Origin: a virus
Taxonomy: Duplodnaviria; Heunggongvirae; Uroviricota; Caudoviricetes
IMG/VR virus record: IMGVR_UViG_2529293139_000011
Reading direction: 5' to 3' (one strand)
DNA length: 40,519 nucleotides
Positions within the stretch are counted from its first letter, which is position 1. Every line of letters begins with the position of its first letter. The position numbers and the translations under genes are program-made. Shown in pieces: positions 934-40,519 of this stretch. The notes beneath the pieces were generated by a model, which was not told the origin of the DNA, did not search any database, and was given only the letters and a program-made list of their open reading frames with translations.

Positions 934-1008
934 ATGGCGAGGGTTTAAGCAATCGAGCGGCAGCGTACTTACCCCGCACTCCATTAGCGGGTATACTCAT
1001 GCCGCATT

Positions 1009-1083
1009 GTCCTCTTAGTTAAATGGATATAACGAGCCCCTCCTAAGGGCTAATTGCAGGTTCGATTCCTGCAGGGGACACCA
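1009..1083 (+). tRNA. argW: tRNA-Arg (anticodon CCU)
   Basis: 75-nt sequence GTCCTCTTAGTTAAATGGATATAACGAGCCCCTCCTAAGGGCTAATTGCAGGTTCGATTCCTGCAGGGGACACCA; acceptor stem GTCCTCT/AGGGGAC, anticodon loop CT-CCT-AA, T-arm GGTTCGATTCC, 3' CCA. Confidence 0.9.
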
Positions 1084-1178
1084 TTTATCAGTTCGCTCCC
1101 ATCCGTACCAGTCCGCAAAATCCCCTGAATATCAAGCCTTCCGTAGATTCGCAGTTCGTCATGGTTCGCGTCAGATCG

Positions 1179-1244
1179 TTGACAGCCGCACTCCATGACG
1201 GGTAAAAAGTGGATAAAATAATTTTACCCACCGGATTTTTACCC
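1179..1244 (+). promoter_or_regulatory. Putative intS promoter and arm-type binding-site cluster (TTGACA at 1179-1184; GGGTAAAAA at 1200-1208; TTTTACCC at 1222-1229; TTTTTACCC at 1236-1244)
   Basis: Three copies of the TTTTACCC motif (one inverted) packed into the 45 bp directly upstream of the intS ATG, with a -35-like hexamer just before them. Confidence 0.4.
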
Positions 1245-2402
1245 ATGCTCACCGTTAAGCAGATTGAAGCAGCAAAGCCGAAAGAAAAACCATACCGCCT
1301 TCTCGATGGTAATGGCCTGTACCTTTATGTCCCTGTGTCAGGGAAAAAGGTATGGCAGCTTCGCTACAAGATTGACGGTAAGGAGAAAATCCTGACCGTC
1401 GGAAAATATCCGCTTATGACTTTGCAAGAGGCAAGGGATAAAGCATGGACTGCGAGGAAAGAGATCTCGGTTGGCATCGATCCGGTAAAGGCGAAAAAGG
1501 CTTCGTCTAACAACAATTCCTTTAGCGCCATTTACAAGGAATGGTACGAGCACAAGAAGCAAGTCTGGTCAGTAGGATATGCAACTGAACTTGCAAAAAT
1601 GTTTGATGACGACATTTTACCTATCATCGGCGGCCTTGAAATTCAGGATATTGAGCCGATGCAACTGCTGGAAGTAATCCGCAGATTTGAAGATCGCGGT
1701 GCAATGGAGCGAGCCAACAAAGCCCGCAGAAGATGCGGCGAGGTTTTCCGTTACGCTATTGTCACTGGTAGGGCTAAATATAACCCGGCACCTGACCTTG
1801 CTGACGCCATGAAGGGATACCGCAAGAAAAACTTCCCGTTTCTTCCTGCAGACCAGATCCCGGCATTTAACAAAGCACTGGCAACATTTTCAGGAAGCAT
1901 CGTATCGCTCATTGCGACCAAAGTTTTACGCTACACAGCCCTCAGAACAAAAGAGCTTCGTTCCATGCTATGGAAGAACGTCGATTTTGAAAACAGGATT
2001 ATCACCATCGACGCCAGTGTGATGAAGGGACGCAAAATTCATGTGGTTCCTATGTCAGACCAGGTAGTTGAACTTCTCACTACGCTAAGCTCAATCACTA
2101 AACCAGTGTCAGAGTTTGTTTTTGCCGGGCGCAACGATAAGAAGAAGCCAATCTGCGAGAACGCGGTATTACTTGTGATCAAACAAATCGGCTATGAGGG
2201 TCTGGAAAGCGGTCACGGATTCAGGCATGAATTCAGCACGATTATGAACGAGAACGAATGGCCTGCTGATGCTATTGAAGTGCAACTGGCACATGCCAAC
2301 GGCGGATCTGTGCGCGGGATTTACAACCACGCTCAGTATCTCGATAAGCGCAGAGAAATGATGCAGTGGTGGGCAGACTGGCTTGATGAAAAGGTGGAGT
2401 GA
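1245..2402 (+). CDS. intS: Tyrosine-type site-specific integrase (prophage integrase IntS)
   Basis: ORF 1209-2402; start moved to the ATG at 1245 (MLTVKQIEAAKPKEK...), which gives the 385-aa length I recall for K-12 IntS; adjacent to the tRNA att site. Confidence 0.85.
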   Translation: MLTVKQIEAAKPKEKPYRLLDGNGLYLYVPVSGKKVWQLRYKIDGKEKILTVGKYPLMTLQEARDKAWTARKEISVGIDPVKAKKASSNNNSFSAIYKEWYEHKKQVWSVGYATELAKMFDDDILPIIGGLEIQDIEPMQLLEVIRRFEDRGAMERANKARRRCGEVFRYAIVTGRAKYNPAPDLADAMKGYRKKNFPFLPADQIPAFNKALATFSGSIVSLIATKVLRYTALRTKELRSMLWKNVDFENRIITIDASVMKGRKIHVVPMSDQVVELLTTLSSITKPVSEFVFAGRNDKKKPICENAVLLVIKQIGYEGLESGHGFRHEFSTIMNENEWPADAIEVQLAHANGGSVRGIYNHAQYLDKRREMMQWWADWLDEKVE

Positions 2403-2555: not shown

Positions 2556-2918
2556 ATGTTAAAGCTATTTGCAAAGTACACCTCGATTGGTGTGCTGAAC
2601 ACACTTATACACTGGGTGGTTTTTGGTGTATGTATCTATGCCGCGCATACAAACCAGGCTCTTGCAAACTTCGCAGGTTTCGTTGTGGCTGTGAGCTTTA
2701 GCTTCTTCGCGAATGCAAAATTCACATTCAAGGCATCGACTACAACGATGCGCTACATGTTATATGTCGGGTTCATGGGAACACTGAGTGCTACTGTTGG
2801 ATGGGCTGCTGATAGATGTTCACTTCCTCCAATTGTCACTCTTGTCACCTTCTCCGCCATCAGCCTGGTGTGCGGTTTCGTCTATTCAAAGTTCATTGTC
2901 TTTAGGGATGCGAAATGA
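2556..2918 (+). CDS. gtrA: Bactoprenol-linked glucose translocase (flippase) GtrA
   Basis: 120-aa small membrane protein ([25 protein letters not shown]...), first gene of a gtr operon; its stop overlaps the gtrB start. Confidence 0.85.
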
Positions 2919-3841
2919 AGATATCTCTTGTAGTTCCTGTCTTCAATGAAGAAGAAACGATACCAATTTTCTATAAAGCGGTACGTGAATTCGAAGAGTT
3001 GAAGCCATATGAAGTGGAAATTGTTTTCATAAATGACGGAAGCAAAGACGCTACGGAGTCAATCATTAACGCTCTGGCTGTTTCAGATCCTCTAGTGGTT
3101 CCGCTGTCATTTACACGAAACTTTGGTAAAGAACCAGCATTGTTTGCAGGGTTAGACCATGCAACAGGAGATGCTGTAATTCCAATTGATGTTGACCTGC
3201 AAGATCCGATTGAGGTTATTCCCCATCTGATTGAAAAGTGGCGGGCAGGCGCTGATATGGTGCTTGCTAAGCGATCAGACCGCTCAACCGATGGTCGTCT
3301 GAAGCGAAAAACTGCTGAGTGGTTCTATAAGCTCCACAACAAAATAAGCAATCCAAAGATCGAGGAAAATGTTGGTGATTTCCGGTTAATGAACCGTGAA
3401 GTTGTCGAAAATATTAAGCTCATGCAAGAACGCAACCTATTCATGAAGGGCGTACTGAGTTGGGTTGGAGGAAAGACTGATGTTGTAGAATATGTTCGCG
3501 CCGAACGCGTGGCGGGCAGCACTAAATTCAATGGCTGGAAATTGTGGAATCTAGCGCTTGAAGGGATAACAAGCTTTTCTACTTTCCCACTTCGTATGTG
3601 GACATATATCGGATTTGTTGTTGCAGCAGCTTCATTCTTCTATGGAGCATGGATGATTGCAGATAAAATACTCTGGGGAAATGAAGTGCGTGGTTACCCA
3701 TCGCTACTTGTCTCCGTACTGTTTTTAGGTGGAATTCAATTAATTGGAATAGGCGTGCTCGGGGAGTACATAGGCAGAATTTATATAGAGGTTAAGAATA
3801 GACCTCGTTATATCATAAAGGGCAATAAAAATGATATTTAG
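2915..3841 (+). CDS. gtrB: Bactoprenol glucosyltransferase GtrB (GT2 family)
   Basis: 308-aa [23 protein letters not shown]... with GT2 DXD-type motifs and C-terminal TM helices; overlaps gtrA and the following gene. Confidence 0.85.
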
Positions 3842-5510
3842 GAACAGACATACTCTTTTATCTATATTCGCTATTTTCATGTTGGTATTTCTTGTTGCAT
3901 TAAATACACCAATGCACTCTGATGACTATAGTTATTACTCACGAGGATTGGGGCTTGATGCGCACATTGCAAATTATATGCACTGGAGTGGGAGGATTGT
4001 AGCAGATTACGTATCTACCGGGATGTTGTCGATTGAGGATCATACCCTTAAGGCCCTCGTCAACTCTATAGGTGTAACATCACTTATTGTTCTCATTGCT
4101 GCAATACCTTCTCAATTATGTAAAGTTGAAATCAAACCATTAGTATTAATTGTTGTTTTTGCTTTATATTGGTCATGTAACCCAAATCTAGGACAGAACT
4201 CGTTCTGGGTTGTAGGAAGCGCGAATTACGCCTGGACTACACTATTTGTTTTATGTTTCATCTATTATTTTTTGAAGTGGATTGAAAACCAAAATACGAC
4301 TAAGATAGTTTCGTTATTTATTCTTGGTTTAATAGCAGGCTGCTCAAACGAAAATACCGCTGTAACTATAGCTCCATTGACAGTTGTTGTTGCAATCTCT
4401 TTATTTTACTTTAAAAAAATAAGATGGCAATATGCTTTATTACCAACGATCGGTGTCATTATTGGTTCTGTGACAATTATTCTTTCACCAGGAAACGCAG
4501 CAAGGGCGAAAAATATTGCGTTCGTTGATTGGTATGCAATGCCGTTAGGTGAGAGGCTAATAGAGCACTTTACTCATAGGTTTTGGTTTGCTTTCACATC
4601 CGCATGGCTTGTAATTGGGCTGCTGGTTATCTGTTCAATTGCATCATATGTTTTTTATCGAAGAAAACTACTTTCATTTTCTAATGCTTCATTATTTGCA
4701 TCAATCTCGTTTTTTGGGTGCTTCCTGCTTGCTAATGCCGCATTGGCTGGTGCTCCATACACTCCTCCGCGATCTTTTAGCATAGGGTTCTGTTTCCTTT
4801 TACTTTGCTTCTCCTGCCTTTTCACTTGGATAAATCAACAGGATGGCAAGATAAAAAGCACTTTATCTTACGCTATTTTATTAGTTTCACTAATTAATTT
4901 CATTGGCTCATATTATTTCGTTTATTCCGCTTATAAAAGAACAACGATCCAGCAGACACTTAGGGAGTCGTCGATTAGAGATGGTAGGAGCAATGGTTTG
5001 AAATCTATTTCTATCCCTGATTATTTCTTTACGCATCTTAAGAATTATAACGATAGATATGATAGATTTCATAATGAGGGAAGCTATGGCAGATACTATG
5101 GTATATCCAAAGCGCCATTACAAAAAGCAACCTTTGACTATTCTGGCATAGCATATAAACCAGTTTACAGTAAAGATGTGCCTCTATACGAGCGCGATAA
5201 TATCAAGTCTATTTTCATGTCACCGCAACAACCATTCATCAGTGGGACATTGATACTTGAGATTTCTAACAATATTGATGGGATTTTATCTCGTGATGGT
5301 GGCGTGAAAATCTTCTTACATATTTTAAAATCAGATGGAAGCATCGTTAACAAGGACTTTTTCCCAACTACTATAGAGCTTAATGGTAGATTCTATGCTG
5401 GAGTTGATCTTTCTGGAGTTGATATAAATGACATTAATAGCCTATTGATTGGTACATTCAATATTCATACGCGTCATCGATATACACAAACACAGATAAA
5501 GATTAATTAA
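3831..5510 (+). CDS. Serotype-specific O-antigen glucosyltransferase, GtrC-like (polytopic membrane N-terminal part plus a soluble C-terminal domain)
   Basis: 559-aa ORF in the third position of the gtr operon; strongly hydrophobic N-terminal ~380 aa, AT-rich codon usage typical of acquired gtrC genes; this family is highly variable so exact specificity is unknown. Confidence 0.65.
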
Positions 5511-40094: not shown

Positions 40095-40262
40095 ATGCAC
40101 TTCCGAGTCACAGGTGAATGGAATGGAGAACCATTCAACAGAGTTATCGAAGCAGAGGACATCAACGACTGCTATAACCACTGGATGATATGGGCGCAGA
40201 TAGCGCATGCAGACGTAACCAATATTCGAATTGAAGAACTGAAAGAACACCAAGCCGCCTGA
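40095..40262 (+). CDS. Small hypothetical protein
   Basis: 55-aa ORF MHFRVTGEWNGEPFNRVIEAEDINDCYNHWMIWAQIAHADVTNIRIEELKEHQAA with GGAG 7 nt upstream, followed by a terminator. Confidence 0.4.
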   Translation: MHFRVTGEWNGEPFNRVIEAEDINDCYNHWMIWAQIAHADVTNIRIEELKEHQAA

Positions 40263-40276
40263 TGGCGGTTTTTATT
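40254..40276 (+). terminator. Intrinsic terminator (GCCGCC-tgat-GGCGG followed by TTTTTATT)
   Basis: GC hairpin plus T-run overlapping the stop of the preceding small ORF, upstream of torI. Confidence 0.6.
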
Positions 40277-40283
40277 GCCTGAT

Positions 40284-40299
40284 TTGCAGGTTCGATTCC
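40284..40299 (+). repeat. 16-nt direct repeat (TTGCAGGTTCGATTCC) identical to the argW T-arm segment at 1054-1069; candidate att core or att-related site
   Basis: Exact 16-mer match to the tRNA found by eye; lies 19 nt upstream of the torI start. Confidence 0.5.
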
Positions 40300-40318: not shown

Positions 40319-40519
40319 ATGCAACACGAACTACAGCCTGATTCACTGGTTGATTTGAAATTCATCATGGCCGATACTGGCTTCGGTAAAACCTTCATCT
40401 ACGACCGGATTAAGTCCGGCGACCTGCCAAAAGCCAAAGTTATCCACGGACGAGCAAGATGGTTATATCGTGACCATTGTGAATTCAAAAATAAGCTCTT
40501 AAGCCGCGCTAATGGGTAA
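40319..40519 (+). CDS. torI: TorI-type excisionase / recombination directionality factor
   Basis: 66-aa ORF MQHELQPDSLVDLKFIMADTGFGKTFIYDRIKSGDLPKAKVIHGRARWLYRDHCEFKNKLLSRANG recognised as E. coli TorI (AlpA/Xis-like winged helix); the window ends at its stop codon. Confidence 0.85.
   Translation: MQHELQPDSLVDLKFIMADTGFGKTFIYDRIKSGDLPKAKVIHGRARWLYRDHCEFKNKLLSRANG

Follow-up and report, generated by a model that had tools for sequence, protein, structure and literature searches.

A probable IntS arm-type P' arm over the intS promoter in the left attachment site of an argW prophage related to KplE1, HK620 and Sf6

The window analysed here, i.e. the whole 40,519-nt stretch of the IMG/VR record IMGVR_UViG_2529293139_000011, carries the tRNA gene argW and the integrase gene intS towards its left end and torI at its right end. 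The element between them is apparently a complete relative of the KplE1 remnant of Escherichia coli K-12, an Sf6/HK620-like (Lederbergvirus) prophage: tailspike, DNA-transfer, portal, terminase, coat, replication, repressor and nin genes lie in the intS-torI interval, and the structural genes match those of HK620/Sf6/CUS-3-type phages at 95-97% identity across roughly half of the left 24 kb. KplE1 is a remnant of 10.2 kb, whereas the element in the window measures about 39.4 kb and has its virion, lysis, replication and immunity regions in full. The intergenic space between torI and intS is taken up exactly by the attachment site. The features of the left arm and of the prophage ends are as follows:

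1009-1083, plus strand: argW, tRNA-Arg(CCT), the integration target (the one tRNA found by ARAGORN; position as in the MG1655 annotation)
1069-1084, plus strand: 16-nt core/overlap CTGCAGGGGACACCAT, the IntS core-type region and left-hand member of the duplication that flanks the prophage (one exact copy in the window; KplE1 core in PMC2951348)
1091-1095, plus strand: TorI (RDF) site I1, GTTCG (mapping of the I1;2 block; 5/5 invariant in Klebsiella and Erwinia phages)
1111-1115, plus strand: TorI site I2, GTCCG (mapping of the I1;2 block, phage alignment, pentamer scan)
1154-1158, plus strand: TorI site I3, GTTCG (mapping of the I3;4;5 block; 5/5 invariant in Klebsiella and Erwinia phages)
1164-1168, plus strand: TorI site I4, GTTCG, needed in K-12 for TorI repression of PintS (PMC2951348 and conservation)
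1174-1178, plus strand: TorI site I5, GATCG, adjoining the -35 and needed in K-12 for TorI repression (PMC2951348 and conservation)
1179-1184, plus strand: -35 of PintS, TTGACA (K-12 identity; named in PMC2951348; invariant in 8/9 aligned relatives)
1200-1208, plus strand: probable IntS arm-type site P'1, GGGTAAAAA, including the PintS -10 TAAAAA at 1203-1208 (P'1 over the -10 and TAAA rule, PMC2951348; 8/8 invariant in Klebsiella and Erwinia phages)
1211-1219, plus strand: probable IntS arm-type site P'2, GGATAAAAT, spanning the transcription start (four P' constructs in the plasmid table; GnnTAAA at +141 from the core in all relatives)
1214-1215, plus strand: intS transcription starts, T and A (K-12 primer extension 2464536/7, i.e. 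ATG-31/-30, mapped to identical window sequence)
1222-1229, minus strand: probable IntS arm-type site P'3, TTTTACCC (minus strand GGGTAAAA), in the 5' leader (TAAA rule and conservation)
1233-1235, plus strand: GGA, presumed ribosome-binding site (RBS in the Sf6 record X59553; CGGA invariant in alignments)
1236-1244, minus strand: probable IntS arm-type site P'4, TTTTTACCC, adjoining the ATG and reading CATGGGTAAAAA on the minus strand together with the start codon (TAAA rule and conservation)
1245-2402, plus strand: intS, 385-aa tyrosine integrase with an N-terminal arm-DNA-binding domain (two substitutions relative to K-12 IntS)
40319-40519, plus strand: torI (RDF), far end of the prophage (100% identical to K-12 TorI)
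40514-40519, plus strand: first 6 nt (GGGTAA) of the attR arm-type site P1 (the window end cuts P1; the rest of attR lies outside the window)

The exact boundaries of the P' sites result from mapping, which combined the TAAA rule, the pentamers, the published coordinates and conservation. The -35 and -10 hexamers, TTGACA and TAAAAA, are separated by 18 nt, and IntS comprises the Pfam domains Arm-DNA-bind_3 (residues 2-86), Phage_int_M and Phage_integrase.

Read out from the sequence, TTGACA at 1179-1184, GGGTAAAAA at 1200-1208, TTTTACCC at 1222-1229 and TTTTTACCC at 1236-1244 all lie where a previous sequence-only reading had placed them, with the intS ATG at 1245, and the overlap of the repeats with promoter and start codon that it had described holds for -10, leader and start codon alike. 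The word TTTTACCC occurs five times on both strands of the 40.5-kb window as compared with 0.85 expected (none of 100 shuffles reached five), and three of these five copies are clustered within 45 bp; the relaxed word TTTA[CT]CC has four matches within 45 bp, the maximum in 300 first-order Markov simulations being two. Exactly four TAAA/TTTA words are found in 1185-1244, one per repeat, and a repeat finder returned a degenerate fourth copy, GGATAAAAT at 1211-1219, which makes an 11-nt near-palindrome with 1221-1231. The repeats are real, non-random and correctly located. Several details had to be revised: the distance from the tRNA end to the ATG, given as 175 bp, is a gap of 161 nt (1084-1244), and about 176 nt separate the ATG from the beginning of the core; the core, given as 1054-1084, is the 16-nt CTGCAGGGGACACCAT at 1069-1084; and of the four P' sites only three had been recognised, P'2 (GGATAAAAT, 1211-1219; plasmid table of PMC2951348 and conservation) having been overlooked together with all five TorI sites between 1091 and 1178.

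Alignment of window positions 1000-1300 with MG1655 revealed only four differences, all between 1139 and 1170, and the stretch 1172-1300 is base-for-base identical to attL/PintS of KplE1 (CPS-53), including the -35, all repeats and the intS start. This comparison with K-12, which had been proposed as a check, bears out the assignment to the attL of a KplE1-type argW prophage. The window shares with KplE1 the argW target, the 16-nt core, the -35, the -10, the start region, the four P' sites, the start codon and all five TorI pentamers; its IntS differs at 2/385 residues and its TorI is identical. The base differences at 1139, 1151-1152 and 1170 fall into the spacer and TorI-flanking region, where the window has the base of HK620 and Sf6 at 1139 and 1170, the base of HK620 at 1151 and, at 1152, a G as in HK620, the base being A in K-12 and Sf6.

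For the K-12 element a detailed experimental description is available (Panis et al. 2010; PMC2951348). PintS consists of the -35 TTGACA and the -10 TAaAAa, and primer extension placed the intS starts at T and A, 2464536/7. The cloned fragment 2464344-2464630 was described as -223 to +64, so that the ATG at 2464567 corresponds to window position 1245 and the mapped starts fall on T1214 and A1215, a T and an A as published. Five TorI sites with the words GTTCG, GATCG or GTCCG are arranged in two blocks, I1;2 (2464409-2464436) and I3;4;5 (2464472-2464499), which map to 1087-1114 and 1150-1177; in the window, the pentamers start at 1091, 1111, 1154, 1164 and 1174, all on the plus strand, with 0.23 expected. 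Four IntS arm-type sites, P'1-P'4, were defined, each containing TAAA and P'1 lying over the -10, and four P' constructs are listed in the plasmid table. IntS and TorI each repress PintS about 5-fold, the intS promoter is 5-fold derepressed in a delta-intS strain, and repression by TorI requires I4 and I5, the sites beside the -35 (PMC2951348). Changing TAAA to ATTT in P'2, P'3 or P'4 one at a time left repression by IntS in place, and P'1 was inseparable from the -10 by mutation (PMC2951348), so that a share of P'2-P'4 in repression, as opposed to recombination, is putative. The proposal that the intS promoter lies within attL and is repressed by IntS and TorI has thus been demonstrated experimentally for an identical sequence, and the checks suggested for it (binding, reporter fusions with mutated repeats, comparison with K-12) are already in print for that sequence.

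The consensus scan as well as the old Sf6 record X59553 favour a different -35/-10 pair, at 1195-1200 and 1217-1222. The scan demands a T at position 6 of the -10 and therefore skips TTGACA/TAAAAA, reporting ATGACG/AATAAT instead. As the main promoter this pair is unlikely, the mapped start T1214/A1215 lying upstream of its -10; the pair in the Sf6 record thus misfits the K-12-mapped start. In the HK620 GenBank record a 'prophage excision' promoter starts at TTGACA. That record also marks the window equivalents of 1199-1220 and 1220-1245, and two copies in the P arm, as attP repeats.

The arm word is found on both sides of the core. The P arm of K-12, HK620 and PK5074 contains ATGGGTAAAATAGCGGGTAAAAT at the 3' end of torI, with arm words 80 and 68 nt before the core, and since the P arm is devoid of an int promoter, the word there cannot be put down to a promoter role. 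The six arm sites of HK620 and of two Klebsiella phages are positioned at -80, -68, +130, +141, +153 and +168 from the core; two Erwinia phages have the final pair at +152 and +167 instead. Conservation was evaluated by comparing the window with these four diverged phages (two from Klebsiella, two from Erwinia), found by similarity search, whose int regions are 76-78% (Klebsiella) and about 76% (Erwinia) identical to the window at the DNA level. Named sites are invariant at 56/63 columns versus 33/97 for the other non-coding positions (Fisher p = 2e-12), and within 1185-1244 the P' words are invariant at 28/32 columns versus 12/28 in the spacers (p = 3e-4).

Other relatives, with int 61-74% identical, carry another word. 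In Erwinia phage phiEt88 and the Salmonella phages Emek and S.Inf5-2, GGGCATA replaces GGGTAAA at all six positions (the P'1 word being GGGCATAT), and the layout of 2 + 2 + 2 sites is retained. The arm-binding domains of the GGGCATA phages are about 55% identical to that of the window as compared with 81-92% in the GGGTAAA group, and ten differences are fixed between the groups in this domain: L20A, N23G, Y26F, Q38R, K42R, T51V, V52I, M58I, D65A and A67Q. These comparisons, drawn from few independent lineages, suggest that the arm word co-varies with the arm-binding domain of the integrase. The Salmonella phages retain GTTC(G/T) repeats, and their RDF retains a TorI-like helix; phiEt88 has exchanged the GTTCG type for GTAAC/GTTAC-type repeats, and its RDF, at 36% identity to TorI, is more diverged. 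Arm-word and RDF-repeat families vary independently, since the Salmonella phages combine GGGCATA with GTTC(G/T). A scan of IMG/VR with IntS returned only relatives of about 99% identity, which are useless for covariation.

A pattern scan for the exact 47-48-nt P' block gave 21 species-representative genomes, from Citrobacter, Erwinia, Pantoea, Rahnella, Rouxiella, Tatumella, Dryocola, Symbiopectobacterium, Escherichia and Shigella. Such a scan selects the P' block by construction and hence informs on taxonomic spread and on unselected upstream features: in 20/21 genomes, where the contig reaches, the block is preceded by the core and by all or the greater part of the argW 3' sequence, and the -35 and the proximal GTTCG repeats, both outside the search pattern, are conserved as well. 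The exact block with upstream GTTCG repeats is also present in CAWCSS010000004.1, a 245-kb contig labelled as an 'uncultured Solirubrobacteraceae' MAG, where 118 nt separate it from the point at which the examined 8-kb stretch ends; this contig probably is mis-binned or chimeric.

Taken together, we consider it highly probable (about 0.93) that the three repeats and GGATAAAAT at 1211-1219 represent P'1-P'4 of a P' arm of the KplE1/HK620/Sf6 type. The locus has the composition of the IntS-TorI module of these elements, i.e. the argW 3' end with the core, a co-oriented intS directly downstream, PintS with four P' sites and five TorI sites, and it shows what is seen with the arm sites of heterobivalent integrases: a word unlike the core in both arms, fixed distances from the core and covariation with the N-terminal domain of the integrase. 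The sequence-only reading had treated the repeats as candidate arm-type or RDF sites. Its first half stands; the second does not, as the TorI word is GTTCG/GATCG/GTCCG and lies upstream. It is true that TorI binds attL and represses intS, and that the repeats are located within attL, but the sites defined and mutated as TorI sites map to 1087-1114 and 1150-1177, and repression was lost on mutation of I4/I5 and not of the P' sites (PMC2951348), which refutes for K-12 the idea that TorI binds the TTTTACCC-type repeats. Moreover, these repeats lack the pentamer, two of them are inverted relative to the other two, and the arm word has changed to GGGCATA in the Salmonella phages, yet their GTTC(G/T) repeats persist; binding of TorI to the repeats is therefore exceedingly improbable.

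Only slightly less remote is an explanation of the conservation by promoter and translation-initiation elements (an A/T-rich -10, discriminator, leader and start-codon region) in place of words recognised by a protein. The -10 does lie inside GGGTAAAAA, P'4 does adjoin the ATG, and P'1 mutations that changed IntS binding also hit the promoter (PMC2951348). Such elements would, however, hardly account for the words of the P arm, i.e. the same 10-mer ATGGGTAAAA plus another GGGTAAAA at the torI 3' end, away from any int promoter, for the joint switch of six copies to GGGCATA in three phages, or for the 5-fold derepression of intS in the delta-intS strain (PMC2951348); in the leader RNA (1214-1275) no significant structure was detected (z = +0.9). 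The near-palindrome GTGGATAAAAT-A-ATTTTACCCAC at 1209-1231, an 11-nt inverted repeat of 91% complementarity with a 1-nt spacer over the start site, has the look of an operator, and a dimeric repressor of phage or host other than IntS might be imagined to bind there. KplE1, however, has no repressor gene and still shows repression, which is intS-dependent (PMC2951348); the P-arm copies are direct repeats, not palindromes; and in relatives the spacer bases between the half-sites vary while the words are fixed. We regard such an operator as very nearly excluded.

With the repeats taken as arm-type sites, the N-terminal domain of IntS (residues 2-86) would read RYGGGTAAAA at P'1-P'4 and at P1/P2, the catalytic domain would occupy the core at 1069-1084, and bridges between arm and core would form the integrative and excisive intasomes. 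As intS is read outward from attL, its sigma-70 promoter is embedded in the arm: IntS on P'1 would occlude the -10 (1203-1208) and IntS on P'2-P'4 would cover the start site and the 30-nt leader, and because bound IntS would thus cover all of these, occupancy of the P' arm is expected to repress the integrase gene about 5-fold. TorI on the five GTTCG-type direct repeats (1091-1178), with I4/I5 adjoining the -35, would add a second, independent repression of about 5-fold. For the identical K-12 sequence the promoter, the start, its repression by either protein and the dependence of TorI on I4/I5 are established; the same regulation is to be expected in this apparently intact prophage, and the arm-binding domain presumably contacts each of the four P' words.

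For an identical sequence, the layout of the sites, the promoter and its repression by both IntS and TorI are already known, having been published between 2007 and 2010, and the repeats were annotated as early as 2001 in the HK620 genome record; overall, the interpretation offered by the sequence-only reading is partly supported. What is added here is modest, namely the mapping onto an apparently intact prophage, P'2 and the TorI sites, and the covariation of GGGTAAA/GGGCATA. Discovery value is small and the practical value lies in annotation. There is some chance, though we would not count on it, that the two arm-site specificity classes, GGGTAAA and GGGCATA, with their near base-exact six-site layout, and the tRNA-derived box upstream of torI (see below) are unpublished. 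If the classes are real, the switch would amount to a swap experiment, carried out by nature, on the code by which P4-type Arm-DNA-bind_3 domains recognise their sites and could be used for engineering orthogonal arm-site specificities.

Besides KplE1, the known systems close to the window include HK620, Sf6 and CUS-3 (Lederbergvirus, P22-like), whose attP agrees with the window at 97.8-99.1% identity over the 316 nt that run from the core into int; there the site is the attP of a free phage, whereas the window holds an integrated attL. With lambda the module shares a heterobivalent integrase and a repeated arm word which is unlike the core and present in both arms, and the TorI sites resemble lambda Xis sites in being closely spaced direct repeats between core and arm sites. 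Number, orientation and distribution of the sites differ from lambda (P1, P2, P'1-P'3), the module having 2 + 4 arm sites and its RDF sites on the P' side. Furthermore, int in the window is read outward through its own arm from an autoregulated promoter in attL, whereas lambda int is read from PI/PL, and the arm-binding domain belongs to the P4-type Arm-DNA-bind_3 fold family, unlike that of lambda. In the satellite phage P4, Int represses its own promoter near the start site and the RDF Vis also lowers integrase synthesis, as here (PMC2951348); the authors of that study contrasted the two RDFs, the proposed target of Vis being the mRNA and that of TorI the DNA at the -35.

The argW site up to about 1083-1084 was matched in all 5426 complete E. 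coli genomes by similarity search. In 1867/5426 of them the match runs on into intS, and where the site is empty the match to the window stops at about 1083-1084; 1893 complete E. coli genomes contain the 72-nt promoter/arm block 1179-1250, and about 35% carry this attL. The window contains the core CTGCAGGGGACACCAT as a single exact copy and ends 6 nt into P1. The right attachment site was read from E. coli PK5074, whose right end is 99.9% identical to that of the window and in which P1, P2 and the second core are intact; NZ_OY754416 is 100% identical at attL, and its right end is not collinear. The left recombination arm and the integrase promoter of this approximately 39-kb prophage are indistinguishable from functional ones, and for this reason the prophage should be competent for excision if attR is intact.

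Some further observations concern the surroundings of the attachment site. Directly after intS, three co-oriented ORFs (2556-5510) occupy the position of yfdG/yfdH/yfdI in K-12, which encode a bactoprenol-linked glucose translocase, a glucosyl transferase and a serotype-specific glucosyl transferase; the third ORF has 559 aa as compared with 443 aa in K-12 YfdI, and a tailspike-type gene follows on the opposite strand. Both genes flanking the attachment site touch its arm words: the stop codon of torI lies within P1 (AAT GGG TAA, 40511-40519), and the intS start codon adjoins P'4 (1236-1247). The outermost arm sites of attP are the identical 10-mer ATGGGTAAAA in inverted orientation, and the TorI-like RDFs of the GGGTAAA group all end in ...NG* or ...DG*, i.e. 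GGG TAA.

Upstream of torI, 20 nt before its ATG, an exact 16-nt copy of the argW T-arm, TTGCAGGTTCGATTCC, is located at 40284-40299 (compare 1054-1069) and includes GTTCG, the pentamer of TorI; an auto-operator for TorI and a remnant of the tRNA are both conceivable. This box is also found in K-12 and HK620 and at least once in phiEt88; Erwinia phage Midgardsormr38 carries CAGGTTCGATTCCC twice in tandem at this position. The Klebsiella phages are devoid of the box, as is Erwinia phage 49. The sequence TTGCCTGATTTGC at 40275-40287 corresponds to the cII-binding site of the 'phage integration' promoter in the HK620 record, annotated there as reading into hkaC/torI and then, in the circular phage, into int; K-12 has TTAC in place of the first TTGC of TTGCCTGATTTGC. 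Ahead of it lies a terminator-like hairpin, GCCGCCTGATGGCGG (40255-40274), followed by a T-run. Within intS, CATTTTACCTA at 1613-1623 deviates from the arm word by one mismatch and is a further attP-type repeat in the HK620 record.
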